A DNA stretch of 64,000 nt, taken from assembly GCA_017404385.1 (NCBI GenBank), contig JAFRCK010000022.1, forward strand, positions 10,674-74,673, written 5' to 3'. Source of the stretch: Bacilli bacterium (GTDB lineage Bacteria > Bacillota_I > Bacilli_A > RF39 > UBA660). The position numbers were made by a program, and so were the translations under genes. Positions 28,794-45,870 of this stretch are shown piece after piece. How positions within the stretch are numbered: position 1 is the first letter of the stretch; each line of letters starts with the position of its first letter. The notes beneath the pieces are model-generated. The model was not told the DNA's origin and did no database searches. It saw nothing but the letters and a program-made list of their open reading frames with translations.

Positions 28794-28819
28794 AGTAGAT
28801 ATTTTTATCTACTTTTTTT
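28794..28819 (+). terminator. rho-independent terminator
   Basis: AGTAGAT-ATTTTT-ATCTACT followed by a T-run. Confidence 0.65.
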
Positions 28820-28847
28820 GTGTTATAATAGGTCTTGGTGATTTTTT

Positions 28848-29717: not shown

Positions 29718-29753
29718 TATTAAAAATGATATAATAAACATAGGAGAATACAT

Positions 29754-30506: not shown

Positions 30507-30520
30507 GTGGGTGTGATTAT

Positions 30521-31216
30521 ATGAAAATTAGTACTTTTAATATACAAAATGATTCTAAAACTTATAAAAGAAAAAAAGTTGATGAATTACATAGTTATAT
30601 AGAAAAAAATAAAATAGATGTATTAGGTCTTCAAGAAGTTTTTCCTAAACTTGATAAAGATATAAAAGATGATTTAGGATATGACTATAAAGTAGAAGGT
30701 AAATTTAGATTTTTATCTAGAATTATTCTAAGAAGAATTAATGAAAAGAATCCAATTATTACTCCTTTAGAAGTAATATCTTCTAAAACTTATCATTTAC
30801 CATCTTTTCCATCATTAACTAAAAGAGTACTAACTCATGTAGTAATTAAATATAGAAATAAAGAAATAAGTATTTATAATACTCATTTAGAAGTATATAT
30901 TCCATCTGTTAAAATAAGACAATTAAATAAGATATATGAAATTATAAAAGATGATAATAGACCTAAAGTCTTAATGGGAGATTTTAATTTAAAAAACAAT
31001 AATAATATTTTTAATGAATTTGTTACAAAGTTAGAGGAACTTGATATTAAAAGAATTCCACTTGATGAAAAAACTTATAAACCATCTAAATATAAAAGAG
31101 AAATAGATCATATTTTTATAAGTAAAGAATTTAAATTAAAAAGTAAAAATGTAATAAAGGATTTAGTTATAAGTGATCATTATCCTGTTTTAATAGATGT
31201 AACTTTTAAGGGATAG
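30521..31216 (+). CDS. endonuclease/exonuclease/phosphatase (EEP) family protein
   Basis: LGLQEV, MGDFN and the C-terminal SDHYPV. Confidence 0.7.
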   Translation: MKISTFNIQNDSKTYKRKKVDELHSYIEKNKIDVLGLQEVFPKLDKDIKDDLGYDYKVEGKFRFLSRIILRRINEKNPIITPLEVISSKTYHLPSFPSLTKRVLTHVVIKYRNKEISIYNTHLEVYIPSVKIRQLNKIYEIIKDDNRPKVLMGDFNLKNNNNIFNEFVTKLEELDIKRIPLDEKTYKPSKYKREIDHIFISKEFKLKSKNVIKDLVISDHYPVLIDVTFKG

Positions 31217-31228
31217 AAAGGAGTTTAT

Positions 31229-31552
31229 ATGAAGAAACTGTTTTTGCCGGTAATTATACTAGCACTAGTATTAATAACTGTTGGATGTGGTAGTAAACCA
31301 AGCATAGTTGGATCATGGGAAAATAAAGAAGATGCTGTTGTTATTACATTTGATAAAAATGGAACTGGTTATACTAAAATAGAAAATAATTATTATGATA
31401 GTTTTATATATACATATAAAGATGGTATTTTAAAAATAAAATATCAAACTATTATGGAAGCAGAATTAAGTTATAAATGTGAAATTACTGAAGATACTTT
31501 AGAAATAAATATAGATAATAAAAAAGTAATATATAAAAGAATAAAAGACTAA
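31229..31552 (+). CDS. small lipoprotein
   Basis: Lipobox LITVGC. Confidence 0.55.
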   Translation: MKKLFLPVIILALVLITVGCGSKPSIVGSWENKEDAVVITFDKNGTGYTKIENNYYDSFIYTYKDGILKIKYQTIMEAELSYKCEITEDTLEINIDNKKVIYKRIKD

Positions 31553-31827
31553 TTATTTAGTCTTTTTAGTTTTAAATATTTTTCATTGTATTCTTTTTTT
31601 AAACCTAATTTATTATTAATTTCTTCATATATTCTTTTATATATATTAAAACTACTAGATTCTACTTTTGATGAAACATAATAATTATTTTTTGTAATAC
31701 AATAAAAGAATACAATTTTATCTAAAACATCTTCAAATACATATAATTTATCTATGTTATTTATATTATGTAAAACAAAATTTCTAAAATCAATTTCTGA
31801 TTTATAAACTATACTATTTAATTTCAT
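31549..31827 (-). CDS. hypothetical protein
   Basis: 92-aa minus-strand ORF convergent with the lipoprotein gene. No motif recognised. Confidence 0.35.
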   Translation of the reverse strand: MKLNSIVYKSEIDFRNFVLHNINNIDKLYVFEDVLDKIVFFYCITKNNYYVSSKVESSSFNIYKRIYEEINNKLGLKKEYNEKYLKLKRLNN

Positions 31828-31886
31828 ATTTAATTATATGTTATAATATAATTAATATTACAAAAAATTATATATAAGGTGTTAAT

Positions 31887-32115
31887 ATGAATGAATTACT
31901 AAATAATATTGATAAGATACATACAACTAAACTAGGTATAGGAAGAATCAAACGTAATGATAATATTTATGATATTGAATATATAAAAAAATAATATTAA
32001 ATAAAAAATCAATTATTAATAAAAAAGGAAAGAATTATTATGTAGAAATAGAAAATATAATAATAACAATTAATTCATATAATTATTGTATTATTACAGT
32101 TCATAGGAGGTAGTA
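31887..32115 (+). pseudogene. decayed DUF3781-like gene
   Basis: MNELLNNIDKIHTTKLGIGRIKRN stops at 31994. A shifted frame continues as KGKNYYVEIENIIITINSYNYCIITVH. Together these resemble the N- and C-terminal halves of DUF3781 proteins, with the middle deleted or frameshifted. Confidence 0.45.
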
Positions 32116-32117
32116 TT

Positions 32118-32663
32118 ATGGAAATGATAGATGTATATAATGAAAATAATGAATTCTTAGGTTATTCAAAAACAAGAGATGAAGTACATGAAGAAAACTT
32201 ATTTCATAGACATGTATCTGCTTGGATAATGAATTATGAAGGTAAAATATTACTCCAACAACGTGCATTCACTAAGAAAAAGAATCCAGGAAAATGGGCA
32301 AAAACTGGTGGACATGTAGATGCTGGTGAATCATGCAATGATGCTTTAAAAAGAGAAATAAAAGAAGAAATAGGATTGAATATAAGTGATATAGAAGAAA
32401 TTAATGTTTTTAAAAGTGAAAATCCTAATTATTTTTCATATAATTATATAGTTTTTACAAATTTAAATGAAGAGGATTTTATATTGCAAAAAGAAGAAGT
32501 TAATTCTGTTAAGTATTATGATATAGAAGAATTAGAGAGTTATAAAAAAGACAATAATAAAGATTTTACTTTTTGTAAATGGAATGTTGATGATTTTTAT
32601 AATCAAATGAATATACTAAAAGAATATAGAAATAAAATAAAAGAACTTGGTCAAAAAAAGTAA
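32118..32663 (+). CDS. Nudix hydrolase
   Basis: Nudix box GGHVDAGESCNDALKREIKEEIG. Confidence 0.8.
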   Translation: MEMIDVYNENNEFLGYSKTRDEVHEENLFHRHVSAWIMNYEGKILLQQRAFTKKKNPGKWAKTGGHVDAGESCNDALKREIKEEIGLNISDIEEINVFKSENPNYFSYNYIVFTNLNEEDFILQKEEVNSVKYYDIEELESYKKDNNKDFTFCKWNVDDFYNQMNILKEYRNKIKELGQKK

Positions 32664-32670
32664 TGACTAA

Positions 32671-32700
32671 AGAATAAGTAGGAGTAATCCTACTTATTCT
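32671..32700 (+). terminator. 13-bp-stem hairpin (no T-run)
   Basis: AGAATAAGTAGGA-GTAA-TCCTACTTATTCT. Its core recurs at 43862-43880. Confidence 0.5.
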
Positions 32701-32739
32701 ATGTTATAATGAATATGGACTTAAAAAGAGGTGAATATA

Positions 32740-35112
32740 TTGGATTTTAAATATGATGCTTTTATAAGTTATAGGCACTGTGATTTAGATAAATTTGTAG
32801 CGGAAAATTTACATAAGATTTTAGAAACTTATGAATTACCTAAAAATGTTAAAGAAAAACTAGGTATAACAGGTAGAACAATTAGAAGAGTATTTAGAGA
32901 TCAGGATGAATTACCATTATCAAGTAATTTAGAAGATCCAATAATTGATTCATTAAAAAATTCTAAATACTTAATAGTTATTTGTTCACCAAGATTAAAA
33001 GATTCTTTATGGTGTAAAAAAGAAATAGAGACTTTTAAAAAACTAAGAGGTAGAAAAAATATATTTTGTGTATTAATTGAAGGTGAACCAAAAGATTCAT
33101 TTCCAGAAGAAGTACTTTATGATGAAGAAGAAAAAATATTAAAAAATGGTAAAAAGAAAAAAGAAAAAGTATTAGTAGAACCACTAGCGGCAGATGTTAG
33201 AGGAGAAACAAAAAAAGATGTATTGAAGAAATTAAAAGAAGAAAAACTTAGATTAATCGCACCAATGTATAATTTAGACTATGATGATTTAAAACAAAGG
33301 CATAAAATAAGAAGACAAAAAAGAATACTAATCATTTCATTAATAGCGGCATCATTTTTATTCTTACTAGCTCTTTATACATCTATTATGCTTATTAAGA
33401 TTAATTCACAAAAGAATACTTTAAGATTACATCAAGCAGAATCACTATCAACTAAATCTAAAGAATCATTAAAAAATGATAATAGATATGATGCGATTAA
33501 TTATTCATATCAAGCTTTAACTGAATTTGATGGAGTTAATATGCCCTATACATCAGAAGCTGAATATGAGTTAGTAGAAAGTTTAGGATTATATGATGTA
33601 GGATCTTCATATAAAAATATTTCTGAATTAAAAACAGATGGAGTTGCGACATTTATTAAAACTAGCGATAATAATGAATATGGTTTAGTATATGATGAAT
33701 CTGAAAAACTAACTTTATTTAATACTAAGACAATGAAAGTTATAGATAACTATGATTTAAATGGAACATTTGATGAAGAATCATTTTCATTCCTGGATAA
33801 TGATAGATTTGCCTATATAAATAAAGAAGGGAATATAAATATTATTTCTATTAAAGATGGTAAATTAATAAAAGAAATAGAAAAGAAAGATGAAAAATAT
33901 AAATCAGTTATAGGTAGTAAAGACTATTTATCATATATAGATAAAAAGAATGTATATGTTTATAATTTAAAAGAAGATAAAGTAGTAGGTAGTATTTCAA
34001 CAAACGATAAATTTATAGATGATTTATATTATTCTGATAATGATGAATATTTATTCGCAACTACTACAGATGATAGTTTTAATGTAGATGAAGAAGACTA
34101 TTTAGAAGTTCATGTAATAGAATTAAAAACTGCTAAAGAAATTAATTCCACTAGAATAGATGCTAGTTATGTATCAGGAATGTTAACTAAAAATGGTAAT
34201 CTTTATATGCTTTTAAATAGATCATATGGTACAGAGTTTAGTATGATTTCGGTATCATATAATTATACTTCTGGTGATACTAATTGGACTAGGATATTCG
34301 AAGGTAATTATGGTAGATTTATAACTAAATCATATCCAGAAGATATTAATCATATTGTAGTAGTTAATTATCAAACTGTTAATATTTTAGATGGTGATTC
34401 TGGAGAAGTAGTAGAAGTCTTTAATTTAGATGATGAAATAATAAATATATATTCAAATCTAAATAAAGAACTTTATCTAGCTTTCTTAAAAAATGGTTCT
34501 GTTAATTATCTAAGCATGGAAAGTAGAAAGAGTTATGAACTTCTAGGTAAATATGAATTTAATATAGATAATTATTCTAAAGTAGCGTTATCTAAAGATG
34601 GATTCTTATTAATACCTAATAATGAAAACAGAGTAGTATTATATGAAACAAAGTCAAATAAAGATATTAAAAGTGTAGATATGAAATTTGATTTTGTTAA
34701 AGATGATTCAATAAAAATAACTGATTATGATAAGATTAAAGAAGAATATGATATAAAAAATAAAAGCTTAGTAGAAAAAATATTTTATGATGATAAAAAA
34801 GAATTATTATTTGTAAATTATACTAATGAAGATTTAGTTATATATAATGTTAAAGATAAAAAACAATTAAACAAAATAGAAAAAATTGGTAAAGTAAATC
34901 ATTATTTTGGAAAAGATAAGTATGGTAGAATCTATATTGGAGATAATTCAAATTCATATATAATAGATAATTATGAAAAAGTAGGACACATAAAAGGATT
35001 AATAAAATTAGAAAAAGATAAAGTATATATTTCTAATGATGAGAAGTTCTATTCTATAAAGATTTATAATTTAAACGAAGTATTAAAAGAAGCCAAAGAT
35101 TATTTAAAATAA
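32740..35112 (+). CDS. TIR-domain protein with TM helix and large C-terminal beta-propeller-like domain
   Basis: N-terminal YDAFISYRH, LIVICSP and SLWCKKEIE (TIR motifs including the conserved Glu context). TM helix ILIISLIAASFLFLLALYTSIMLI at about aa 200. About 570 further residues carry recurring blade-like strands (VYVYNLKEDK, VVLYETKSNK, LVIYNVKDKK). Start is TTG at 32740 or GTG at 32731. Confidence 0.75.
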   Translation: MDFKYDAFISYRHCDLDKFVAENLHKILETYELPKNVKEKLGITGRTIRRVFRDQDELPLSSNLEDPIIDSLKNSKYLIVICSPRLKDSLWCKKEIETFKKLRGRKNIFCVLIEGEPKDSFPEEVLYDEEEKILKNGKKKKEKVLVEPLAADVRGETKKDVLKKLKEEKLRLIAPMYNLDYDDLKQRHKIRRQKRILIISLIAASFLFLLALYTSIMLIKINSQKNTLRLHQAESLSTKSKESLKNDNRYDAINYSYQALTEFDGVNMPYTSEAEYELVESLGLYDVGSSYKNISELKTDGVATFIKTSDNNEYGLVYDESEKLTLFNTKTMKVIDNYDLNGTFDEESFSFLDNDRFAYINKEGNINIISIKDGKLIKEIEKKDEKYKSVIGSKDYLSYIDKKNVYVYNLKEDKVVGSISTNDKFIDDLYYSDNDEYLFATTTDDSFNVDEEDYLEVHVIELKTAKEINSTRIDASYVSGMLTKNGNLYMLLNRSYGTEFSMISVSYNYTSGDTNWTRIFEGNYGRFITKSYPEDINHIVVVNYQTVNILDGDSGEVVEVFNLDDEIINIYSNLNKELYLAFLKNGSVNYLSMESRKSYELLGKYEFNIDNYSKVALSKDGFLLIPNNENRVVLYETKSNKDIKSVDMKFDFVKDDSIKITDYDKIKEEYDIKNKSLVEKIFYDDKKELLFVNYTNEDLVIYNVKDKKQLNKIEKIGKVNHYFGKDKYGRIYIGDNSNSYIIDNYEKVGHIKGLIKLEKDKVYISNDEKFYSIKIYNLNEVLKEAKDYLK

Positions 35113-35125
35113 AAAAGGAGGAAAT

Positions 35126-36100
35126 ATGAAAAAGAGATTTTTAATATTAATTTTATTAATAGTAGGATTATTTACTATAACTGGATGTGGTTGTAGTAAA
35201 AAAACAAATGAAGATACAAAAAATAAAAAGGAAATAATAACACCACTAATGTATAAAGTAACAAAAGAAGGAAGTAGTAATACAATTTATATACTTGGTA
35301 CAATTCATGCCGGAAGTTTAAAAAATACAGAATTTGCTAAATATGTAACTAAAGCATTTGATGAAAGTCATTATGTAGCCGCTGAAATTGACAATGAAGA
35401 AGACGAATCTTTAGATGAAGTTCTTGAACAATTAGAAAAATTCACATATGATGGGGATGATACTATTAAGAATCATATGTCGTCAGAAGAAAATTATAAT
35501 AAACTAATGAAATATGTAGAAGATAATAATTTAGAAATAGAATTAATAGATAAAGAAAAATTAAACTTAGAATACTATTCTAGGTCATTAACACAAGTTG
35601 TTATAGAAAAATCAGGTTTAACTGCTGAAGAAGGAATAGATGAATATTTTGTTAATATGGCTAAAAAAGAAAAAAAGAATTTCTTAGTTGTTGAAGGTAC
35701 TGAATTCCAATCAGAAGTATTAGCTAGTCTATCTGATAAATTTTATGAAAATATGATAATAAGTGCAATTGAAAATTTAGATGAACAAATAAAAGAATTA
35801 AAGGACTCTTTTGAAATTTGGAAAAAGGGTAATGAAAAAGAAATATGGAAAGATGATGGTTCATCAATAAAAGAAGAAGATAAATCTAAATATAGTGAAG
35901 AAGATATTAAGGCAGCAGAAGAATTTGACGAAAAAATATTATATTCTAGAAATATAACTATGACTGATAAATTAGAAGAATACTTTAAAGATAATAAAGA
36001 TGTATTTTATATGGTAGGACAAGATCATGTTATAGGTGATAGAGGAATAGTATCATTATTAAGACAAAGAGGATATACTGTAACAAAAATATCAAAATAA
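35126..36100 (+). CDS. TraB/GumN (TIKI-like) family lipoprotein
   Basis: Lipobox LFTITGC and the family N-terminal motif TIYILGTIHAG. Starts 13 nt after the TIR gene stop. Confidence 0.65.
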   Translation: MKKRFLILILLIVGLFTITGCGCSKKTNEDTKNKKEIITPLMYKVTKEGSSNTIYILGTIHAGSLKNTEFAKYVTKAFDESHYVAAEIDNEEDESLDEVLEQLEKFTYDGDDTIKNHMSSEENYNKLMKYVEDNNLEIELIDKEKLNLEYYSRSLTQVVIEKSGLTAEEGIDEYFVNMAKKEKKNFLVVEGTEFQSEVLASLSDKFYENMIISAIENLDEQIKELKDSFEIWKKGNEKEIWKDDGSSIKEEDKSKYSEEDIKAAEEFDEKILYSRNITMTDKLEEYFKDNKDVFYMVGQDHVIGDRGIVSLLRQRGYTVTKISK

Positions 36101-36104
36101 AAAG

Positions 36105-36129
36105 TTCTAACATTCGTTAGAATTTTTTT
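36105..36129 (+). terminator. rho-independent terminator
   Basis: TTCTAAC-ATTC-GTTAGAA followed by a T-run. Confidence 0.7.
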
Positions 36130-36180
36130 ATTATAAAATATGTTATAATAATCTTAGATTATTAAAAGGAGGAAAATAAT

Positions 36181-36480
36181 ATGTCTAAAGAAAGCGCAAA
36201 AAGTTTTGTTGATAAGTTTTATAATGATGATGAATTTATAAGAGAATTAACTTTAAAAGGTGGAGTTAATTCAAAAGCTAGTGAAGAAGAAAGATCAAAG
36301 TTACTAATGAAGGTTTCAAAGGAAATGGGATTTAATTTCACTGAAGAAGAATATAGTGATGCTGTTAAAAAGTATTTTGAAGGAAAAGGTGTTTGGACTG
36401 CTATAAAAACTTTTAGACATTTTAATAAAATAGCTAAAAAAGCAGAAAAAGAAAGAGAAAAGAATAAAAAGCATAATTAA
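36181..36480 (+). CDS. Nif11-domain-like small protein
   Basis: MSKESAKSFVDKFYNDDEFIRELT ... VSKEMGFNFTEEEY resembles the Nif11 N-terminal domain. Lys-rich tail, no Cys-rich core. Confidence 0.45.
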   Translation: MSKESAKSFVDKFYNDDEFIRELTLKGGVNSKASEEERSKLLMKVSKEMGFNFTEEEYSDAVKKYFEGKGVWTAIKTFRHFNKIAKKAEKEREKNKKHN

Positions 36481-36518
36481 TTTAAGTTGATATATTTGCT
36501 TTTAGTAATAAATAAAAT

Positions 36519-36590
36519 AAGATTAATAAAACTAGTATAAACTAGTTGATTATGATACTATGACTAATAAACTTAGGGGGATTATAATAT
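36519..36590 (+). repeat. array repeat R0 (short form, one core)
   Basis: AATAAAACTAGTATAAACTAGTTGATTATGAT matches the family consensus AATAAAACTAATATAAATTGGTTGATTACGAT. Runs into the RBS of the ORF at 36591. Confidence 0.7.
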
Positions 36591-37265
36591 ATGAAGGTAA
36601 TTAAACATGAAGACGAATTTGGATTAAGAGTATCTTTTCAAGAATTAGATAAACAATTTGATGTATCATTTGGTGGTAATTTAGATTTATATTGGACAAT
36701 TCGTTCAAAAAATGAGAATGATAGACATGAATTTATAATCACAAAAGAAAATTATGAAGTATATAGATTGTTTGAAGAATTATTTGATGATATTGAAAAT
36801 ATAAGAATATTTACTGAACCTACTATTCCTTCTTATATAGTAACTGAAGAAGAAAAACAAGATTATATTAAGGAACTAGAATGTGAAAAAAATAAATATA
36901 GATTATATAATTATTCAAATTATAATGAGTTATTTGATAAGGAGAATAGTACTATTACTTGGTATTCAGATGAAACTAATCATGAGGTTTCTAATATACT
37001 AAAAATAATAAAAGAAAAAGAATCTTTTAGATTAGAGTTTTCTATACAAGCACATAAAAGAGAATATGATAGAGATTTTAATTCTTTGAATTATATTCCT
37101 ATTAGATTTAGAAATTCTGGTAGTTCATATGAACCATTTAATGTAATATTTATGAGAATGTATGAAAAAATGAAACAAATTGATGATATTAATGATTATG
37201 GGCATCAAATTCATATTGAAGAATTCTTTTACAATAAAAATAAAACGAAAAAACTAACTAAATAA
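36591..37265 (+). CDS. cassette ORF 1, hypothetical protein
   Basis: 224-aa ORF bounded by R0 and R1. No motif recognised. Confidence 0.5.
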   Translation: MKVIKHEDEFGLRVSFQELDKQFDVSFGGNLDLYWTIRSKNENDRHEFIITKENYEVYRLFEELFDDIENIRIFTEPTIPSYIVTEEEKQDYIKELECEKNKYRLYNYSNYNELFDKENSTITWYSDETNHEVSNILKIIKEKESFRLEFSIQAHKREYDRDFNSLNYIPIRFRNSGSSYEPFNVIFMRMYEKMKQIDDINDYGHQIHIEEFFYNKNKTKKLTK

Positions 37266-37270
37266 TTTAA

Positions 37271-37502
37271 ATGACATATGACCAGGAAACTATATACTAA
37301 TAATTGATTACGGTTTATAGTAACTTTTGTAGAAATCCTTTATTTATAAAGCTTTGTAAAGATTAACATCTTGCATGTTTATACTAAAATATATAAAAAA
37401 TGATGATAATTAGTGAAAATAGAGTGATTTTAAGTAAAATCAGATTAGAAATTGACATAGTGAGAACGGTTAGTTAAGACCAGATGAAAGGAGATGAGAA
37501 TC
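37271..37502 (+). repeat. array repeat R1 (long form, two cores)
   Basis: Degenerate left module. Core TTGATTACGGTT at 37304 and second core GTGAGAACGGTT at 37460 (156 bp apart). Promoter-like module, and hairpin TGATTTT-AAGT-AAAATCA at 37425-37442. Confidence 0.75.
37363..37390 (+). promoter_or_regulatory. promoter-like element inside R1
   Basis: TTAACA-N16-TAAAAT. The same arrangement is found at the same offset in R2 (39292), R5 (41500, with ATAGCA as -35) and R6 (42311). Confidence 0.45.
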
Positions 37503-38540
37503 ATGGCAAATAATTTAGTAATTAGAAGCAGTAGTGCGGAGTTTTTGATATTTGAGAGACAAACACATGATATGGGAATTCAAGTTAGATTTGAAAATGG
37601 AGATTTATGGTTAACTCAAAAAGCTATGAGTGAATTATATGATTGTACTACTGATAATATTTCTTTACATTTAAAAAACATTTATAATGACTACGAACTT
37701 AATAAAAATTCAACTACTGAGGAATTCTCGGTAGTTCAAAAAGAAGGAAATAGAAAAGTAAAAAGAAATATATTATATTATAATTTAGATGCAGTCATTT
37801 CGGTTGGATATAGAGTTAATTCTGATAAAGCAATTCAATTTAGACGATGGGCAACGAATATATTAAAAGAGTTTTCCAAAAAAGGATATATTATTGACAA
37901 ACGAAGAATGGAAAATGGTGCATTTTTTGATGAGGATTATTATGATTCATTATTAGCTGAAATAAGAGAAATTAGATTATCAGAAAGAAGATTCTATCAA
38001 AAGATAACTGATATATATGCTACTAGTATAGATTATGATTCTAAAGCACCAACAACTATTAAATTTTTTAAAAAAGTTCAAAACAAAATGCATTATGCAG
38101 TATCTCATCAAACAGCAGCTGAAATAATATATAATCGTGCTGATTCAGAAAAAGATAATATGGGACTTACATCATGGAAGAATTCTCCAAATGGGAAAAT
38201 TTTAGAAACCGATGTTGTTATTGCTAAAAACTATTTATCTAAAGATGAATTAGAAAGTTTAGAGAGGATAGTTTCTGCATTTTTAGATTTAGCAGAGAAT
38301 AGAGCTAAAAGAAATATTCCAATGACAATGGAAGATTGGTCATCAAGAATTGATAAATATTTACTTGCTGATGATTTGGATATATTAAAAGATGCAGGAA
38401 AAATATCTCATGAAATAGCTTGTGATAAAGCATTATCTGAATTTGAAAAATATAGAATAAAACAGGATAAATTATATAAATCTGATTTTGATTTATTAAT
38501 AGAAGAAGGAATTTCATTTAAAAAAAATGATGAAATTTAA
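37503..38540 (+). CDS. RhuM-family protein
   Basis: VRFENGDLWLTQKAMSELYDCTTDNISLHLKNIY, YNLDAVISVGYRVNSDKAIQFRRWATNILKEF and SERRFYQKITDIYATSIDYD are characteristic of RhuM. The ATG at 37503 is better spaced from AAAGGAG than the ATG at 37494. Confidence 0.8.
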   Translation: MANNLVIRSSSAEFLIFERQTHDMGIQVRFENGDLWLTQKAMSELYDCTTDNISLHLKNIYNDYELNKNSTTEEFSVVQKEGNRKVKRNILYYNLDAVISVGYRVNSDKAIQFRRWATNILKEFSKKGYIIDKRRMENGAFFDEDYYDSLLAEIREIRLSERRFYQKITDIYATSIDYDSKAPTTIKFFKKVQNKMHYAVSHQTAAEIIYNRADSEKDNMGLTSWKNSPNGKILETDVVIAKNYLSKDELESLERIVSAFLDLAENRAKRNIPMTMEDWSSRIDKYLLADDLDILKDAGKISHEIACDKALSEFEKYRIKQDKLYKSDFDLLIEEGISFKKNDEI

Positions 38541-38618
38541 AATTAATTATAAGAATTACTTATAAGTTGAGGTTAAACTAACAAAAATAACTTGTATGTT
38601 GGAGATGATGAAGTAAAT

Positions 38619-39197
38619 ATGATATTGTATGTAACTAAGAAAACTAAAGAGAGATTAAATATTCCTATGATAGATGAATTAAGTGATATATCTAAAAATA
38701 ACGCATCAATAGTTTTAAATAATGAGGAAGACACGGAATTACTTAAATGGGGAATTAAAATCTTTTATATGGATAGAAGAAAATGTTTGCAAGCCGTCAA
38801 TTTTGCTTCAAAACTAACTATATATTTATTTGACATTCATAATGATAGTATTGAATATATTGGTGATGCAATGGCAAATTATATGTATCATATATATGAT
38901 AATGATGAAAAAATGACAAATTTATTAAACAGATTATTTAATGAACATTCACTTTGTGTTTTTTCTAATTTAACAGATAAAACAGCAATTTCAACTTTAA
39001 ATTATAATGAACGTTGCTATGTCAATACATATAGATTTTATGATTACATTGAAAATAATACATTAAAAACAATAGAAATAAATAAAGATGTTAATTTTGA
39101 CAATTTATTAACTGTAAAAATTAATGGTAAAAGAGAATATATAGTTCCAGGTGAATATTTTAAAGAACTATTAACAAATTATTATAAAAGGAGTTGA
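38619..39197 (+). CDS. hypothetical protein sharing a cassette with RhuM
   Basis: No array repeat separates it from the RhuM gene; only 51-78 nt containing the hairpin TTATAAG-AATTA-CTTATAA. Start is ATG at 38619 or TTG at 38592. The stop lies inside the R2 left module. Confidence 0.5.
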   Translation: MILYVTKKTKERLNIPMIDELSDISKNNASIVLNNEEDTELLKWGIKIFYMDRRKCLQAVNFASKLTIYLFDIHNDSIEYIGDAMANYMYHIYDNDEKMTNLLNRLFNEHSLCVFSNLTDKTAISTLNYNERCYVNTYRFYDYIENNTLKTIEINKDVNFDNLLTVKINGKREYIVPGEYFKELLTNYYKRS

Positions 39198-39428
39198 TCC
39201 AAATGAATGAAAGTAAAACTAATATAAATTGGTTGATTACGATTTATTTAACCCCTTTAAGAAATCCTTTATTTACAAGGCTTTTCGAGAATTAACATCT
39301 TACATGTTTTATATAAAAATACTTAAAAATTGATGAAAATTAGTAAAAAAGGCTATTTTTAATTAAAAATAAGGTGGAAATTACTAAGGTGATTACACCT
39401 TTTAACTAGATAAAATGAGGTGATTAGA
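39187..39428 (+). repeat. array repeat R2 (long form)
   Basis: AAAGGAG-N9-ATGAATGAAAGTAAAACTAATATAAATTGGTTGATTAC. Cores at 39233 and 39389 (156 bp apart). TTAACA-N16-TAAAAA at 39292-39319. Palindrome TTTTTAATTAAAAA at 39356-39369. Confidence 0.8.
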
Positions 39429-40121
39429 ATGTATTTATATAAGAAAAATGATAAGTCAATTACTATTTATTCTTTTGTTCCTAATAAAGAAGAATTGATT
39501 AAATTAAAAAAAAGGTATCTAGAAGATATAAAAAGTGTAATTCTTCATATTAATGATAATGACACAGAGGAATTATTGTTTAGTAGTCCAACTATTATGT
39601 TTTATGCTTTAGATAGAAAAGAAACTAATGGTAAGATAACATACATAGAGGAAGAAAAAAATGATAAAAATATTTCTAGGTATATTAATGGAGAATTTGA
39701 TTCTTTAGATCCTTTATGTATTATTGGTGATACGGTTAATAAAAAATCTTCTTATAGTGGCGAATTGTATAATTGTGATAGCGCTTTACTATTTACTGGT
39801 GGTTATTATTACAATAATGAATTTATAACTAATGATGGAATATTATTAACCGGATATTTAGCAGATTTTCAACCATTATTAAGTAGTGATATAAGTAATG
39901 TTCTTTTTCCAGATACTTTTAGATATTTAAGTGATGAAATAATAGATTCCTTAAAAATATTTAGTTGTAAAAAAGAACGCATAATAAAATTGGATGATTT
40001 AAAATTTATGCAAGAACATGGACTAATTCAAATTAATGATAGTCTTCAAGATACTTTTGAAAAAAGTGAAGAAGTTTTAAATAGTTATAATAAAGTTAAA
40101 AAGTTAACTCAAAAAATGTAG
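39429..40121 (+). CDS. cassette ORF, hypothetical protein
   Basis: The ATG at 39429 is 6 nt after GAGGTG. No motif recognised. Confidence 0.5.
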   Translation: MYLYKKNDKSITIYSFVPNKEELIKLKKRYLEDIKSVILHINDNDTEELLFSSPTIMFYALDRKETNGKITYIEEEKNDKNISRYINGEFDSLDPLCIIGDTVNKKSSYSGELYNCDSALLFTGGYYYNNEFITNDGILLTGYLADFQPLLSSDISNVLFPDTFRYLSDEIIDSLKIFSCKKERIIKLDDLKFMQEHGLIQINDSLQDTFEKSEEVLNSYNKVKKLTQKM

Positions 40122-40141: not shown

Positions 40142-40216
40142 ATGAATGAAAATAAAACTAATATAAATCGGTTGAGAACAATTTAGTCAAGACTAGTTAA
40201 AAAAGAGGTGAATAAC
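40142..40216 (+). repeat. array repeat R3 (short form, one core)
   Basis: ATGAATGAAAATAAAACTAATATAAATCGGTTGAGAACAATTTAGTCAAGAC runs directly into the RBS AGAGGTG. Confidence 0.8.
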
Positions 40217-40840
40217 ATGAGTTTTAAAGAAGAAATAAATGAATTAGAATTATTAAGATTTGAAAGTGATTATATTATAAAAAAAGGGAATCTTCCTATT
40301 CTTTTTACTGCACCTCATACTATGAAACAAATAAGAGAAGATGGTTGTGAAAAATTAAGCGAACCATATACAAAAGCTATAGCTTTATATTTAAATAAGC
40401 ATTTTAATGTTAACTGTATGATTAAAATAAATGATACTGGGTTAGATGCTAATAGAAATCCAAGAGATGAATTTAAAACAGAATTGCTTAGATTTATAAA
40501 AGATAATAATATTAAATTAGTAATAGATCTACATGGTTCAAAAAAATCACGAGACTTTGATATCGAGTTTGGAACACTTAATAATTTATCCGCAGATTTT
40601 TCTACTATAAAAGAATTAGAAGAAGCATTTAATGAAAATGGCATTTCTAATATAATATATAATGACCCTTTTAAAGGAGGCGCTATTACTGAATATGTTT
40701 ATGGTTTAAAAGATGTAGATGTTATTCAAGTAGAAATAAATGGTAGATATAGAGATTATAATAATTTAGAAGAATTAGAAAAACTAATAAAAAGTCTTGA
40801 AAATTTTATAAAACAATATAAAGAATATATAAATAGATAG
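40217..40840 (+). CDS. cassette ORF, possible N-formylglutamate-amidohydrolase-fold protein
   Basis: FTAPHT near the N-terminus and VIDLHGS in the middle loosely resemble FGase-family motifs. Weak call. Confidence 0.3.
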   Translation: MSFKEEINELELLRFESDYIIKKGNLPILFTAPHTMKQIREDGCEKLSEPYTKAIALYLNKHFNVNCMIKINDTGLDANRNPRDEFKTELLRFIKDNNIKLVIDLHGSKKSRDFDIEFGTLNNLSADFSTIKELEEAFNENGISNIIYNDPFKGGAITEYVYGLKDVDVIQVEINGRYRDYNNLEELEKLIKSLENFIKQYKEYINR

Positions 40841-40852
40841 TAAGTGACTTTC

Positions 40853-40926
40853 ATGAACGAAAATAAAACTAATATAAATTGGTTGATAACAATTTAGTCA
40901 AGACCAAGAAAAAATGAGGTGATGTT
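40853..40926 (+). repeat. array repeat R4 (short form, one core)
   Basis: ATGAACGAAAATAAAACTAATATAAATTGGTTGATAACAATTTAGTCAAGACC, then the RBS TGAGGTGA. Confidence 0.8.
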
Positions 40927-41418
40927 ATGATTAAATTATTTGATAGTAATATGAATGAAGTGACTATCAAAAGAGAAATGTATCAATGGGATATTTTTCC
41001 ACTTGACAGCTTTTCCGCTTTCGGGTTTGTTATGAATAGTGAATATTTTCAAACAAGTGAACATGCGTTTCAATATTTAAAGTTTGTTGATACCAATAAA
41101 GAGATAGCTAATAAAATTAAAGAATCATTTTCACCTAATGATGCAAGAAATATTGCTCATGAAAATAAAGAATATAGATTATCTAATTGGTCAGATGTTA
41201 AGTATCAAAATATGGAAAAAATTTTAAGATTAAAAGTAGAACAGAATCCTATTGTAAAAGATGTACTTCTAAATACAAAAGATTATATAATTGTTGAAAA
41301 TTGTATTGATGAAGATACTGATTGGGGATTAGATAGTAATAATCAAGGAGATAATAATTTAGGTAAAATTTGGATGAAAATCCGTGATGATATAAAAGGA
41401 GTTGATCCAAATGAATGA
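40927..41418 (+). CDS. cassette ORF, NADAR (YbiA/DUF1768)-family protein
   Basis: FSAFGFVMNSEYFQTSEHAFQYLKF and the C-terminal NNLGKIWMKIRD match the NADAR domain signature. The stop lies inside the R5 left module. Confidence 0.6.
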   Translation: MIKLFDSNMNEVTIKREMYQWDIFPLDSFSAFGFVMNSEYFQTSEHAFQYLKFVDTNKEIANKIKESFSPNDARNIAHENKEYRLSNWSDVKYQNMEKILRLKVEQNPIVKDVLLNTKDYIIVENCIDEDTDWGLDSNNQGDNNLGKIWMKIRDDIKGVDPNE

Positions 41419-41640
41419 AAATAAAACTAATATAAACTGGTTGATTACAATTAATTTAAACCCCTTTGAAAAGTATTGTAAAATAAGGTAAAACTCAAAA
41501 TAGCATCTTACATGTTTTATATAAAATATGTTAAAATTGATAAAAATTAGTAAAAAATCACTATTTTTAAGTGAAAATAGTATAGGAATTAATAAGGCGA
41601 TTACAGAAGTTAAACCCCCTAGAAATTTGAGGTGAGATTC
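41395..41640 (+). repeat. array repeat R5 (long form)
   Basis: AAAGGAGTTGATCCAAATGAATGAAAATAAAACTAATATAAACTGGTTGATTAC. Cores TTGATTACAATTAATTTAAACCCC at 41441 and GCGATTACAGAAGTTAAACCCC at 41597 (156 bp apart). Hairpin TCACT-N7-AGTGA at 41558-41574. Confidence 0.8.
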
Positions 41641-42207
41641 ATGATATTACAGTATATTGATAATGAAGAATACAAGAATAAGATAGAAAAGTTATATTTA
41701 GAATCTTTTCCAGAAGAAGAAAGATTTCCATTTTGGATATTAGATGAATGTTCTAAAGAAGATAAGTCTGATTTATTAGCTGTATTAGATAATGATAAAT
41801 TTATTGGAATGTGTTATTTAGTTAATTGCAACGAGGTGTATTATCTTATGTATTTAGCAGTTGAACCAGAACTTAGAAGTCAAAATTATGGTTCTCAAAT
41901 ACTAATGGATTTAAAAGACAAATATAAAACATTATTTTTATCCATTGATGAACCTATAGATGATTTAAGTATAAGACGTAAAAACTTTTATTTAAGAAAT
42001 GGATTTTATGATACTAACAAGTATTACGAAGATACAGGTGTTAATTATGAAGTATTATGCACAAATCCTGAATATGAAATAACAAATGATAATATGAAAA
42101 TGAGATATATTAATATGACAAATAATCCTGAATTATCTAATGTAATAGCAAATACATTTAATGCAGATTTTGTTAATTTAAGAGATAAGAATAAACACTT
42201 AAAATAA
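41641..42207 (+). CDS. cassette ORF, GNAT-family N-acetyltransferase
   Basis: LAVEPELRSQNYGSQILMDL (acetyl-CoA binding Q/R-x-x-G-x-G/A) and the later YLRNGF. Confidence 0.65.
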   Translation: MILQYIDNEEYKNKIEKLYLESFPEEERFPFWILDECSKEDKSDLLAVLDNDKFIGMCYLVNCNEVYYLMYLAVEPELRSQNYGSQILMDLKDKYKTLFLSIDEPIDDLSIRRKNFYLRNGFYDTNKYYEDTGVNYEVLCTNPEYEITNDNMKMRYINMTNNPELSNVIANTFNADFVNLRDKNKHLK

Positions 42208-42441
42208 AGGAGTTGAGTGGGATGAATGAAAATAAAACGAATATCAATTGGTTGATTACGGTTTTTCGTAACTTTTGGAGAAAGCCTTTATTTATAAGAC
42301 TTTGTGAGAATTAACATCTTGCATGTTTATGATAAAATATAATAAAAATTGATAAAAGATAGTATAAAAAGACTAAAATAAGTTAAAAAAAGTATAGGAA
42401 TTACGATATTGATTACGCTAGTAAAAGAGGAGTGAAATAAT
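42206..42441 (+). repeat. array repeat R6 (long form)
   Basis: AAAGGAG-N9-ATGAATGAAAATAAAACGAATATCAATTGGTTGATTAC. Cores at 42252 and 42409 (157 bp apart). Confidence 0.8.
42311..42338 (+). promoter_or_regulatory. promoter-like element inside R6
   Basis: TTAACA-N16-TAAAAT with an extended -10 TG (TGATAAAAT). The 30-codon mini-ORF starting at 42222 stops at the TAA inside this -35 hexamer. Confidence 0.45.
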
Positions 42442-43032
42442 ATGAATTATGAAAGGGAAATAACTGTAGAAGTTTGTGTTGATTTAAGCAGTTTAATTAA
42501 AATACTTGAAGAAAATGGCTTTGAATTAAAAGAAGTTTATGATTTAAATGATATATATTTAATTAATAAGAATGATAAGGAAGATGATTACTTATCAATG
42601 TTAAACAAATGTGTTTTAATTAGAGATATTATTGAAGAAGATAAAGAAACTAAATTGTTAACTTATAAATATAAAGAGTATAATGAAAATAAAGAAATTA
42701 CAAAACAAGGAAAAGTAAAAGTAAAAATTGACGATATCAACAATTCTAAATTATTATTTGAAAAATTAGGCTTTGAGGAGTTAATTAGAATAAATGACCA
42801 TATGCTTGTATACGCAACAGATAAAGATGAATTGGTTATTCAAAATGTAAATGGTAAGCATATTTATATTGAATTAGAAGATAAATGTAATTATGCAAAT
42901 AGATTTTATAATTCTATAGATGAGATGAAAAAAGTAATTACTGATAATAATATTCCAATTAAGAATAATGATTTTTTCGTTAAAAAGGCTGAAATTGAAT
43001 TACAAGAAACTTATAATAAAGTAGGTGAATAG
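42442..43032 (+). CDS. cassette ORF, CYTH-like (class IV adenylate cyclase / triphosphate tunnel) protein
   Basis: N-terminal EREITVEV (ExExK-like strand), KHIYIELED near the C-terminus, and a length of about 195 aa fit CYTH/CyaB-like proteins. Moderate-to-weak call. Confidence 0.4.
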   Translation: MNYEREITVEVCVDLSSLIKILEENGFELKEVYDLNDIYLINKNDKEDDYLSMLNKCVLIRDIIEEDKETKLLTYKYKEYNENKEITKQGKVKVKIDDINNSKLLFEKLGFEELIRINDHMLVYATDKDELVIQNVNGKHIYIELEDKCNYANRFYNSIDEMKKVITDNNIPIKNNDFFVKKAEIELQETYNKVGE

Positions 43033-43034: not shown

Positions 43035-43300
43035 ATGAATAATGAAGAAAAAAACTTACAAAAAACTAATATAAATTGCTTGAGCATGATTTATCTAACC
43101 CCTTTAACAAATCCTTATAAAACAAGGAAAAACAAGAATTGAATCTTACATTTTTTTATAAAAAATGAGTAAAAATTAACAAAAAACACCAAAAATTATT
43201 AAAAATGGTGCTTTTTTTATATATTTTTAATAAGGTGATGTTTCCAGCTAACCCCATTGAAAAATAAGGGCTTTTTAACTTTTACTGAGTGTTCGGAAAA
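43035..43300 (+). repeat. array repeat R7 (long form, divergent subfamily)
   Basis: AAAACTAATATAAATTGCTTGAGCATGATTTATCTAACCCC. Second core GTGATGTTTCCAGCTAACCCC at 43235 (155 bp on). Hairpin CACCA-N14-TGGTG followed by a T-run at 43187-43218. The sequence after the second core resembles the start of another unit. Confidence 0.65.
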
Positions 43301-43397
43301 TAGTAATATTGCGATGTAATATGATTAATATTAGATTTTCATGATTATATGGTATAATATTATTGATTTATTGCAAATTTTTGATAAGAGGTTTATT

Positions 43398-43832
43398 ATG
43401 GAATATTTGGTTGAAAGTCATTTAGGTGGTTATTATGTTAGTAATTTAGATCCAGAAGTAATAACTGCGTATTGCGAATCTTGTGGTGATTCTGATTGGA
43501 TACTACTGTCTTGGGAAAAAGGACATATGATGGAAACTCTAATTCAATATTTTTCAGAATTAAAACATTCAACGGAGAATATAGAAAAAAACCGACAAGC
43601 AGGAATTACTAAGCAAGAGGCAATTGAAAGTGCTTTGTATGAATATTCTTTTAAAGATAAAAATATAATTGAAGCTCTTTATGAAGAAAAAATTATTTTG
43701 GAAGATGAATATAAACAATTATTAAAAGAAAATCTTCAAGCACAAAAAAATCAAATAACTTTAGTGTGTGAAGTTTATCCAAGAGAAGTCAAAAAAGTAT
43801 TAAAAAAGCAAAAAAAGAAAAATAAGAGATGA
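43398..43832 (+). CDS. cassette ORF, hypothetical protein
   Basis: The ATG at 43398 follows AAGAGG, with its own extended -10 TGGTATAAT at 43350-43358. The upstream ATG in the track (43341) precedes the promoter-like element. Confidence 0.45.
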   Translation: MEYLVESHLGGYYVSNLDPEVITAYCESCGDSDWILLSWEKGHMMETLIQYFSELKHSTENIEKNRQAGITKQEAIESALYEYSFKDKNIIEALYEEKIILEDEYKQLLKENLQAQKNQITLVCEVYPREVKKVLKKQKKKNKR

Positions 43833-43884: not shown

Positions 43885-43971
43885 TTATATAGTAGAGGCC
43901 ATATGTCCTAACAACTATATCAATATTTTTGATGTTGCAATATCTAATCCAATAAAAATGACTTAAAAATG

Positions 43972-44001
43972 GACGAAGCTATACTAAATTTCGTCTTTTT
44001 T
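43972..44001 (+). terminator. rho-independent terminator
   Basis: GACGAA-N12-TTCGTC followed by TTTTTT. Confidence 0.5.
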
Positions 44002-44021
44002 ATGCTATAATTGATTAGAAA

Positions 44022-44230
44022 TGGAGTGATTCCTATGGATAATAATACTAATATTAATTGTTCGATAGGAAATTAGGCAACATTTTTCGAAAACTCCCAT
44101 AAAATAAGGGTAAAACAGCTATCAAGTAATTACATTTTTTTAATAAAATTTGTAAAAAATAGCAAAAAATACCCAAAAATACCTTAAAAATGGCACAGCA
44201 TTTAAGGGGTGGTGTTCGGACGCAACACTT
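44022..44230 (+). repeat. array repeat R8 (terminal, divergent)
   Basis: GGAGTGATTCCTATGGATAATAATACTAATATTAATTG, then CATAAAATAAGGGTAAAAC and ATTACATTTTTTTAATAAAATTTGTAAAAAATAGCAAAAAATACCC, colinear with R5 and R7. Confidence 0.6.
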
Positions 44231-44246
44231 TAAAAAAGTAATTAAT

Positions 44247-44274
44247 ATCAGATAGTTTTATCTGATTTTTTTTA
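44247..44274 (+). terminator. rho-independent terminator separating the array from the ParB-like gene
   Basis: ATCAGATA-GTTT-TATCTGAT followed by eight T. Confidence 0.7.
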
Positions 44275-44296
44275 TGCAAAAATTTAGGAGGGTTTT

Positions 44297-45175
44297 ATGA
44301 AAGAGGAAGTCGTAGAATTAAATGTTAAAGACATATCAGATTTTCCAAAGCATCCATTTAAAATAAACAATGATTTAAATTATGAAGAACTTAAAAACAG
44401 TATTATTGAAAGTGGAGTTCTTGTTCCTACTATTGTAAGAAAGAAAGAAGACGGAAAATACGAAATGTTATCTGGACATAGAAGAAAGAAAATTTGTGAA
44501 GAACAAGGTATTAAAAAAATACCATGTATTGTCAAAGATATTTCAGATGAGGAAGCTATCATATTAATGGTTGATTCTAATCTTCAAAGAGATAAGATAC
44601 TACCAAGTGAAAAAGCAATAGCTTATAAAATGAAATATGAAGCGATTAAACATCAAGGTAAAACTTCCGACCCAATGGGTTCGAAGTTATCAATCGAAGA
44701 TATTGTAAAAGACACAAATGATAGTGCTACTCAAATAAGAAGATATATAAGATTAAATTATTTAATTCCAGAATTATTACAGTTAGTAGATGATACAGTA
44801 TTAAAAGATAAACGAGCTACTTTAACAATGGGATTAAGACCAGCTGTAGAATTATCTTATTTATCTAAAGATGATCAAGAACTTGTTTATGAAGAAATAA
44901 CTTATGAAGATTTAACTCCAAGTCATGTACAAGCTAAAAAAATAAGAGAACTTGGAGAAAAAGGTGAATTAGACTCAGATGTACTTGAGTCTATTTTTTT
45001 GGAACCAAAACCCAATCAAAAAAATAGAATATCTTTAAATGAAGAAAGAATACGAAAAGTATTACCCAAAGATATTAAGGATTATAAAATTGAAGATTTT
45101 ATAATAAAAGCAATTGAGAGTTATTCTAAAACACTCTCTAATGAAAGGGGTGATTCATATGATTTAGATATTTAG
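44297..45175 (+). CDS. ParB/Srx-like nuclease-domain protein
   Basis: ParB N-terminal domain motifs HPFKI, VLVPTIV and MLSGHRRKKICEEQG. Confidence 0.7.
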   Translation: MKEEVVELNVKDISDFPKHPFKINNDLNYEELKNSIIESGVLVPTIVRKKEDGKYEMLSGHRRKKICEEQGIKKIPCIVKDISDEEAIILMVDSNLQRDKILPSEKAIAYKMKYEAIKHQGKTSDPMGSKLSIEDIVKDTNDSATQIRRYIRLNYLIPELLQLVDDTVLKDKRATLTMGLRPAVELSYLSKDDQELVYEEITYEDLTPSHVQAKKIRELGEKGELDSDVLESIFLEPKPNQKNRISLNEERIRKVLPKDIKDYKIEDFIIKAIESYSKTLSNERGDSYDLDI

Positions 45176-45230
45176 CACCCTACAATAATTATTTTGTTTC
45201 TGATAGGATTTATGTAAGAGGTGAAGAAGA

Positions 45231-45854
45231 ATGAAAAAAGTTATTATTAGCTTAATCATTTTATTTCTTATTGCTTCAGGATTCTTAACTTATAAATTTA
45301 TATTTATGAGAAATAAAGATGAAAAAGAGCCAGTAGTTGAATCTACAGTTATTGAATCTAAAGTTGATTCAAAAGAAATGGAGGAAGAAGAAAATGAACC
45401 TATTACAGAAATTATTGAAAACGATAATAATATTGTTAAAGACAACAGCATTAATGACAATAATGCTAATTCGAACAATATGGAGAGCAATACTGTTCGT
45501 AACTCTAATGTCGTAAAAGAAAATACAACAACTAATAATGTTAAAAAGGAAGAACCTAAACAAGAATCTGCTCAAGTACAACAACCAGTAGTACAACCTG
45601 AACCAGAACCACCAAAACATGAACCAACAGCATGGGAAAGTTTAGGAATAAGTGAATATGATTATTATCATTCACCAATGTGGAGTTGGGCTAGAGTTGA
45701 TTATAAAATAGAAGATTATGGATCATTTGAAGCAACACATCAAGCTTGTATTGATGCTGGATATCAATTAGAAGACATAATTAGTTTTTCATGTACAAAC
45801 ATTAATAGTTATTCGGGTGCTTATTTAGGAGATATGCTCAGAGTAAAAAAATAA
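45231..45854 (+). CDS. membrane-anchored protein with low-complexity linker
   Basis: N-terminal helix, N/E/V-rich and PVVQPEPEPP linker, Cys-containing C-terminal domain. Confidence 0.45.
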   Translation: MKKVIISLIILFLIASGFLTYKFIFMRNKDEKEPVVESTVIESKVDSKEMEEEENEPITEIIENDNNIVKDNSINDNNANSNNMESNTVRNSNVVKENTTTNNVKKEEPKQESAQVQQPVVQPEPEPPKHEPTAWESLGISEYDYYHSPMWSWARVDYKIEDYGSFEATHQACIDAGYQLEDIISFSCTNINSYSGAYLGDMLRVKK

Positions 45855-45870
45855 TGAAAGGAAAAACAAT

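Follow-up and report, generated by a model that had tools for sequence, protein, structure and literature searches.

Tandem single-gene cassettes behind copies of the rbgA 5' end in gut and rumen Bacilli: a probable accretion of mini-elements beside a conjugative element

The stretch of DNA analysed here, referred to as the window, comprises 64,000 nt of a Bacilli bacterium (RF39; UBA660), positions 10,674-74,673 of the forward strand of contig JAFRCK010000022.1 (assembly GCA_017404385.1). Between 36.5 and 44.3 kb of the window, intergenic repeat units (R0-R8) separate small genes on the + strand, and the interval 39187-39428, the subject of an earlier note, is one of these units, R2. Long units hold two related ~25-nt sequences, core 1 and core 2, with a module between them, and short units hold a single core. 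In the array at 36.5-44.1 kb, mini-elements of a single gene each have probably accreted in tandem at the 5' end of rbgA (ylqF), beside a conjugative element at the same site, and the probability of this reading is put at roughly 0.6. It builds on direct observations, namely the identity of the repeat with rbgA, the sharp divergence of the two beyond a fixed point, the precise junction of the conjugative element, the location of the arrays between lepB and rbgA, the shuffling of cassettes between arrays and the co-variation of the two cores within units.

Every unit begins AAAGGAGTTGATCCAAATGAATGAAAATAAAACTAATATAAAYTGGT, and the ~50 nt ahead of core 1 consist of the ribosome-binding site (RBS) and the first 31 nt of rbgA, the gene for the YlqF GTPase. 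From the RBS to ...AAACTGGT (...AAAYTGGT), 338 distinct units and 103 distinct rbgA 5' ends give one and the same consensus. Past ...AAAYTGGT the two diverge sharply, units reading TGATnAC... and rbgA reading ATCCAGGnCATATGGC. In 31 genome loci the motif continues ...TGGTATCCAGGACATATGGCTAAGAC, encoding MNENKTNINWYPGHMAKT..., and the resulting protein of ~288 amino acids is identified as YlqF/RbgA by the equivalog model TIGR03596 (340 bits, cut-off 208). Since the unit and rbgA consensus agree and then diverge, the 'leader open reading frame' of the units is a truncated rbgA start fused to foreign DNA. A leader or pheromone-like peptide had been considered for this small open reading frame (ORF), MNENKTNINWLIT..., and was rejected, as it is the truncated N-terminus of RbgA and is not conserved past the junction.

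Upstream of the array in the window lie trmD (14735), rplS (17989) and lepB (18462), and in B. subtilis rbgA comes after rplS. Arrays in other loci are positioned between trmD-rplS-lepB and rbgA, and in 80 metagenome loci, retrieved through RbgA, all genuine units are upstream of rbgA. In the 31 genome loci, and in those metagenome loci where arrays abut the gene, the last repeat on the right runs on into an intact rbgA; in the window and the 10 kb beyond it, rbgA itself was not found. A dispersed intergenic repeat, of the miniature inverted-repeat transposable element, repetitive extragenic palindrome (REP) or BOX-like kind, was rejected, the motif being confined to 36.5-44.1 kb of the window and the metagenome units all lying upstream of rbgA.

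The 5' end of rbgA is a known target of conjugative elements. The insertion point of Tn5253 follows nt 20 of the rbgA coding sequence, and the element duplicates an 83/84-bp site made up of 63 nt of upstream and 20 nt of coding sequence, so that the gene is restored; its left junction equals the site of the recipient, and its excision requires int and xis (PMC6079316, PMC8571831). [quoted passage not shown]

A conjugative element of this kind of location adjoins the array in the window (Table 1). It is preceded by a host-type rbgA upstream region, and the same terminator and promoter block stands ahead of intact rbgA in L036, L012, L017, L081 and L100 (handles of this form denote loci). The same element is found in L006 (95% identity) and L045 (92%), and in a three-way alignment with the window the common sequence starts exactly at the join TG/TTCGATAGG (TG/TTCGATAGGAAATTAGGCAACA). 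The rbgA copies before that start are of three variants (MDNNTNINC, MNENKTNINC and MNNEKILNNTVINC), which differ up to 3-5 nt from the join. Because the common start is exact behind three different rbgA copies, the junction of the element is site-specific, and it coincides with the divergence point of cassette units and rbgA.

Between core 2 of the element and the RBS of its ParB-like gene (44229-44296) there is a terminator-like hairpin, CAGATAGTTTTATCTG, with a T run, followed by TTTTATGCAAAAAT, which suggests attenuation or a second promoter. The same block after core 2 occurs in L011 (~3700-3760) and L057, and the cassette units are without it. Further copies of the element's core type were looked for as possible operators, and none was present anywhere in the window. 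The element also carries its own SSB gene (51203-51571) and an ocr-like anti-restriction gene (60644-61093) just before the coupling-protein gene.

Units were surveyed beyond the window by scanning public contigs of metagenome-assembled genomes (MAGs), one genome per species, with AAACTAATATAAAYYGGTTGA. This gave 108 stretches containing 321 units at no more than 4 mismatches to the motif, with 12 units in the densest 8-kb tile. Nearly all stretches with the repeat belong to bacteria of the rumen or gut; the labels they bear are Bacilli, Erysipelotrichaceae, 'Tenericutes' or 'Mycoplasma sp. CAG:956'. The 200 complete cassette genes fall into 131 protein families with a median length of 192 amino acids, the commonest cargo being GNAT acetyltransferases (14 families), methyltransferases, NUDIX and HAD proteins, S51 peptidases and deaminases. 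A search of a plasmid database returned no DNA match to the query in either near or distant mode. One MAG, RGIG8845, has arrays on six contigs (L006, L020, L025, L027, L039 and L040) with about two dozen units together; this is either a very large array which breaks the assembly or several strains binned together.

Homologues of the cassette genes of the window have other neighbours in other arrays, and the ends of homology between loci are clustered. The 3' ends cluster at +15 to +21 of the motif, and the 5' ends either -50 to -20 relative to the motif or -20 to -11 relative to start codons. These clusters define two linkage blocks, one formed by a gene and its downstream rbgA copy and the other by core 1, module and core 2. 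Differences between arrays, which the earlier note had proposed to check against core boundaries, map to the boundaries of units. An example is provided by L036 and L061: beyond 1.9 kb that they have in common, one of them continues with rbgA and the other with a long unit.

The cores themselves had been described by the earlier note as occurring twice, in direct orientation, in five long units of the window, and the positions given for them are correct (Table 1), as is the spacing of 155-157 bp. The ~25-nt core is indeed repeated in R2, R5, R6 and R7. R1 departs from the description in having two different core types, the first GATTAC..AGTAAC and the second GAGAAC..TTAAGACC, which belong to different families. 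Within the window the similarity of copy 1 to copy 2 is only modest when judged against 2000 shuffles: the second copies exceed shuffled sequence in R5 (p=0.0015), R7 (p=0.018), R6 (p=0.044) and R2 (p=0.05), and that of R1 is not above chance because its two cores come from different families. The long units R1, R2, R5, R6, R7 and R8 can nevertheless be aligned end to end, with a mean column identity of ~66%.

Stronger evidence comes from 121 non-redundant long units of public MAG contigs. Comparison of core 1 with the core 2 of its own unit gave a mean score of 13.1, against 9.9 for the core 2 of other units (z=16.4, 2000 permuted pairings), and the own core 2 ranked in the top 10% for 64 of the 121 units, a set in which the independent events number as many as the core families (~8-10), far below 121. 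The paired-core feature is real and general. The ~8-10 families have distinct 'box 1' and 'box 2' sequences, for example GATTAC..TTAACCCC, GAGAAC..AGTCAAGACC, GGCTTGTA..GCGACA, GGTGTTTA..AGTCTAAC and GATTTC..TTAAGAACA. Most long units repeat both boxes in core 2, and the boxes match in at least eight diverged families, whereas the spacers differ systematically, ATTTA being always found in core 1 and not in core 2. The distance of 156 bp between the cores is specific to families, with modes over families of 139-140, 144-146 and 156-158 bp. A DNA loop of constant size (156 bp, 15 helical turns) was rejected, as the spacing varies by family (140, 146 and 157 bp) and keeps no consistent phase. The whole long unit is ~90% conserved within a family across the genomes of different species, between unrelated flanking genes, and the cores show no extra conservation.

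The module between the cores bears a promoter-like consensus in the 121 units, TTAACA, 16-17 nt and TAAAAT, arranged around an invariant ATCTTRCATG. In R2 a promoter scan placed this region at 39292-39320 (TTAACA, 17 nt, AAAAAT, around the conserved ATCTTRCATG), and in R6 it lies at 42311-42338 (TTAACA, 16 nt, TG-n-TAAAAT). The distance from motif to start codon is bimodal, at 50-70 nt in ~40 units and 200-230 nt in ~128, and of the units that can be classified (128 long versus 40 short) some three quarters have a promoter-like module of their own. The proposal that the 156-bp module is itself an ORF-less cassette was not borne out: the 40 nt before core 2 share 13.9 of 40 identities with the rbgA copy, against 13.8-14.8 for shifted and shuffled controls. 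Lacking an attachment-site copy of its own, the module is not an independent cassette. It is most probably the left end, with a promoter, of every inserted element, and the conjugative element is built alike before its ParB-like gene.

Short units exist for most core families, and the earlier note was correct in describing R0, R3 and R4 as units with a single core running into the next RBS. Their joins were read by eye in ~11 non-B units and the type-B consensus, each against long units of the same family. The core-1 spacer is retained in short units of families A1, E and B, in one of D and one of C; the core-2 spacer is retained in those of F, in two of D, one of C and one of G. The join lies in box 1 or box 2 depending on the unit, and in all but one case within the longest identical stretch for the family. 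That its position varies argues for microhomology-driven deletion between direct repeats and not for a recombinase cutting at a fixed position. Short units therefore look like microhomology deletions between the two cores, so that of the suggestion that long and short forms are recombination footprints, their relation by loss of the module between cores is retained and the use of a defined site is not.

Other exchanges have left their mark on the units. In R7, as had been noticed earlier, the sequence after the second core (CCCCATTGAAAAATAAGGGC...) resembles the start of a module, forming a truncated second module start at ~43254-43300, and the arrangement recurs elsewhere (e.g. L037/L072 and L023/L043). 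R7 and its relatives would appear to be the reciprocal product expected from unequal exchange. Chimeric units combine two families, F/B in R1 of the window, which has a degenerate rbgA copy upstream of its core 1, A1/F in L012, E/B in L045 and G/F in L126, with the exchange inside the conserved promoter-like region. The halves of a unit are thus separable by recombination, yet own pairs far exceed random pairing; this, and the matching of boxes over diverged families while spacers differ systematically, argue for a putative recognition function shared by both cores. The putative binder could be an integrase or accessory factor at the left arm, or an element-specific repressor flanking the promoter.

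These observations can be assembled into a model. Each unit would open with the RBS and first 31 nt of rbgA, an attachment-site duplication which keeps rbgA intact, and the inserted DNA would begin just past ...AAAYTGGT, its first ~25 bp being core 1. A full left end would consist of core 1, a small hairpin block, a promoter-like region of sigma-70 type, a leader and, 140-157 bp on, core 2, located just ahead of the RBS of the cargo gene, which in turn ends in or at the next rbgA copy. A mini-element would then comprise this left end, one cargo gene (rarely two, as with RhuM and DUF6933) and a mimic of the rbgA 5' end at its right end, short units being left ends which have lost the module by deletion between the cores at their longest identity. 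It is attractive to consider that the cassettes are inserted and moved in trans by a tyrosine integrase from conjugative elements which target rbgA, and that one element-specific DNA-binding protein, be it integrase, accessory factor or promoter repressor, recognises both cores and so keeps them alike.

A number of findings weigh against this model. No integrase gene was detected within 8-10 kb of any array in a crude regular-expression scan of 190 loci for tyrosine recombinases, and none was recognised with Pfam, PHROGs and NCBIfam in those 19 kb of the conjugative element which are visible, its far end perhaps lying outside. At the element's right end, neither a second rbgA copy nor rbgA nor an integrase occurs within 10 kb beyond the window; read from L109, the flank past the coupling protein consists of a terminator and apparently ordinary genes. 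Since the right junction is absent, the integration of this element into rbgA is deduced from the left end only. Furthermore, cores differ between neighbouring cassettes, which is awkward for one integrase recognising them all, and homologous recombination via the 50-nt repeats would yield the same clustering of breakpoints. The wider search for recombinases was negative in the Pfam summaries of 124 large and 131 cassette protein families, although an unusual enzyme could be missed since these summaries stop at the 25 commonest families and the scans for motifs were crude. Its only matches were XerC/D-like genes of the housekeeping kind, 6-7 kb downstream of rbgA, an unrelated recombinase 8 kb downstream and two transposases of the IS110 family (DEDD_Tnp_IS110 and Transposase_20), which lie within array-bearing tiles (124 large ORFs, L001-L108). 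The same scans of the loci found no intI with attI and a promoter at the head of an array.

Homologous recombination is in fact the basis of one competing explanation, according to which conjugated or transformed DNA recombines through the ~50-nt rbgA copies and through units of the same family, the copies stemming from one or a few old integrations. Crossovers inside the conserved 50 nt would produce breakpoint clusters at its two edges, as observed, the four chimeric units switch inside the conserved promoter region, and no integrase adjoins the arrays. However, the three rbgA copies at the junction of the element, differing as close to the join as they do, point to a fixed crossover, the repeats are merely 50-60 nt long, and 131 cargo families in one compact geometry would be hard to create in that way alone; this explanation is considered unlikely. 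It is likewise doubtful that the cores are functionless, that is, the relic of an old duplication of the left end, kept alike by short-tract gene conversion around a module which serves as the promoter of the cassette. Whole units are conserved within families without extra conservation of the cores, and direct repeats are prone to the deletions which are observed. Against this stand the matching boxes of the diverged families with their systematically different spacers, the own-pair scores far above random in spite of halves which chimeras show to be separable, and the low efficiency to be expected of gene conversion between 25-nt repeats at 70-80% identity.

The earlier note had placed the recombination site in the core itself. 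In this scheme the module and one core would form an ORF-less promoter cassette moving core by core, and the need for a partner site would keep the cores alike. It accommodates the co-variation of cores within units, the existence of short units for most families, the partial second module of R7 and its relatives, as if modules stood in tandem, and the breakpoints of homology, by which cores travel with the module and not with genes. It is nonetheless quite improbable: the join in short units is not fixed and follows the longest identical stretch, the spacers of the two cores are unlike in sequence and length, which is incompatible with the identical overlap needed by tyrosine recombinases, units and rbgA diverge at the left edge of core 1, and no recombinase gene was found near the arrays. 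What can be kept of the proposal is that site-specific recombination is involved, with core 1 at the junction. Because units and rbgA diverge there, and because the conjugative element joins three host sequences there, the crossover would lie at the left edge of core 1 and not inside the core.

A structured nucleic acid, such as an Frpo-like single-stranded DNA promoter, a riboswitch or attenuator, a small RNA or an attC-like hairpin, is largely excluded. It would suit an array beside a conjugative element which carries NADAR and other small enzymes, and small hairpins of the form CCTT..AAGG recur with some compensatory changes. However, nothing in Rfam came near gathering scores for the units, RNAalifold gave no consensus structure on either strand from the 121-unit consensus, folding energies are weakly, ~0.9 standard deviations, below those of shuffles (mean z ~-0.9), a long stem-loop of Frpo type is missing and the repeats are direct, not inverted. 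Tandem accretion of mini-elements at the rbgA 5' end is retained as the preferred reading, and the features of the window are listed on this basis in Table 1.

Table 1. Repeat units, cassette genes and conjugative element of the window (positions of the window)
Feature	Position	Strand	Description
R0, short degenerate unit	36516-36590	+	AATAAAACTAGTATAAACTAGTTGATTATGATAC...; one core
Cassette gene	36591-37265	+	ORF, product unassigned
R1, long unit	37304-37483	+	core 1 37304-37326 (family F), module, core 2 37460-37483 (family B)
Two-gene cassette	37494-38540 and 38592-39197	+	RhuM and DUF6933
R2, attachment-site repeat	39187-39233	+	RBS AAAGGAG, ATG at 39203, ~10 5' codons of rbgA, ends ...AAATTGGT
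R2, core 1	39233-39256	+	TTGATTACGATTTATTTAACCCC; directly after the junction, putative first ~25 bp of inserted element
R2, promoter module	39257-39388	+	small hairpin block CCTTTATTTACAAGG, promoter-like region, A/T-rich leader with weak hairpin
R2, core 2	39389-39410	+	GTGATTACACCTTTTAACTAG; direct copy 156 bp downstream of core 1, followed by RBS of gene 39420
Cassette gene	39420-40121	+	product unassigned
R3, short unit	40142-40207	+	rbgA copy, single family-B core GAGAACAATTTAGTCAAGAC, then RBS
Cassette gene	40208-40840	+	FGase-like
R4, short unit	40853-40926	+	rbgA copy, single family-B core GATAACAATTTAGTCAAGACC, then RBS
Cassette gene	40927-41418	+	NADAR
R5, long unit	41395-41619	+	rbgA copy 41395-41441, core 1 41441-41464, module, core 2 41597-41619
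Cassette gene	41632-42207	+	GNAT
R6, long unit	42206-42425	+	rbgA copy 42206-42252, core 1 42252-42274, core 2 42409-42425
Cassette gene	42442-43032	+	product unassigned
R7, long unit	43036-43300	+	variant rbgA copy ATGAATAATGAAGAAAAAAAC...AATTG, core 1 43080-43103, module, core 2 43235-43257
Cassette gene	43341-43832	+	product unassigned
Host-type rbgA upstream region (attL)	43960-44059	+	terminator hairpin, TGCTATAAT promoter-like site, RBS, ATGGATAATAATACTAATATTAATTG
Left end of conjugative element	44058-44296	+	long unit of own family: core 1 TGTTCGATAGGAAATTAGGCAACA 44058-44082, hairpin block, promoter-like module
Core 2 of conjugative element	44210-44228	+	TGGTGTTCGGACGCAACAC; then terminator-like hairpin before ParB-like gene
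Conjugative element	44297-63087	+	ParB_N protein, thioester/SpaA adhesin, sortase, Rep-like helix-turn-helix protein, SSB, pLS20/Mycoplasma-ICE-like membrane proteins, VirB4-like ATPase, M23 peptidase, MobL relaxase, ocr-like protein, VirD4-type coupling protein

The conserved start of the units, AAAGGAGTTGATCCAAATGAATGAAAATAA (39187-39203, 41395-41418 and equivalents), has stops in all three frames, and several upstream genes terminate within it, one example being ...KGVDPNE* at 41418. Within the unit start, AAAGGAGTTGATCC complements the 16S rRNA 3' end almost completely. Another recurrent block, CATATG(A/T)CC(A/T)GG followed by a degenerate AAACTATAT..AATAAT and then a core, is present at 37270-37305 (R1) and 43893-43950 of the window, and also in L081, L100, L017, L083 and L012, where it stands upstream of the host-type rbgA promoter. 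In inverted form, CATATGnCCWGG corresponds to an rbgA sequence, CCAGGnCATATG, located just past the junction, and the block may represent a further type of element end or else an inverted site of old date.

Upstream of the array, between lepB and the first recognisable unit, ~17 kb (19095-36500) hold co-oriented accessory genes with no recognisable units (CmpB-like, Cthe_2159, P-type ATPase, NUDIX, ABC transporter, Metallophos, sortase and Exo_endo_phos). In L018 the Metallophos gene comes directly after lepB, so that some of the ~17 kb is variable as well. Just ahead of the array lie genes for a defence-like protein of 793 amino acids with TIR and WD40/beta-propeller domains (32731-35112) and for a TraB/PrgY-family protein (35126-36100); homologues of the former occupy the same relative position in L018 and L029. 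Two adjacent proteins further upstream (11206-12003 and 12404-13528) have strong matches to the mTERF family (E ~1e-37), which is known chiefly in organelles and is unusual in a bacterial chromosome.

A full-text literature search found no description of such arrays, and a number of parallels can be drawn with systems which are known. The arrays have the target gene, and the end of that gene, in common with the Tn5253, Tn5252 and Tn1549 families; insertion takes place directly after ...TGGT(T), the repeat consists of the upstream region and first codons of rbgA, the duplication keeps rbgA intact and the left junction bears the host's own version of the site. By contrast, the repeat spans 31 nt of coding sequence here and 20 in Tn5253, no int or xis was found in the searches described above, the hosts belong to uncultured, low-GC Bacilli from rumen and gut, and the conjugation genes resemble those of pLS20 and Mycoplasma elements. 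Streptococcal elements at the rbgA 5' end are large and occur singly or in pairs, whereas here at least 12 single-gene elements may stand in a row, in long and highly variable arrays present in many species of uncultured gut and rumen bacteria.

Cis-mobilisable elements (CIMEs), such as those of Streptococcus thermophilus, are flanked by att sites and have no recombination genes of their own. The cassettes share with CIMEs and with the tandem accretions cited earlier their bounds of att repeats, their lack of recombination and transfer genes and their stacking beside a conjugative element at its site. They differ in being uniform, numerous units of one gene (median 192 amino acids) with very diverse cargo, and many of them begin on the left with a standard promoter-like module. 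A promoter between cores that are paired and family-specific offers a compact and testable system for the recognition of element ends.

Integrons, above all the sedentary chromosomal ones, resemble the arrays in scale and cargo. They too are co-oriented arrays of single small genes with a recombination-site repeat between them, their content differs among close relatives, and their very diverse cargo is rich in acetyltransferases, NUDIX proteins and similar small enzymes. The arrays described here differ in having no intI next to them, a repeat which copies the 5' end of a host gene, and direct repeats with weak folding and no consensus fold in place of the imperfect inverted repeat of attC, which folds as a single strand with GTTRRRY at its end; most cassettes have a promoter-like module of their own, and the hosts are Bacillota (Bacilli), from which, to our knowledge, classical integrons are essentially unreported. 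What is distinctive is the combination of attachment-site accretion at the rbgA 5' end with an integron-like scale and cargo. If cassettes move via the attachment-site repeat, this would represent a second route to an integron-like gene pool and would illustrate how host chromosomes can be seeded by conjugative elements with cargo that is mobilisable. It may tentatively be suggested that the arrays are an independently evolved, integron-like capture platform, in which the rbgA 5' end is the target, the cassettes bear a mimic of it as recombination site and are self-expressing thanks to a standard left end, whose promoter is flanked by two recognition boxes specific to the element, and the recombinase is supplied in trans by conjugative elements.

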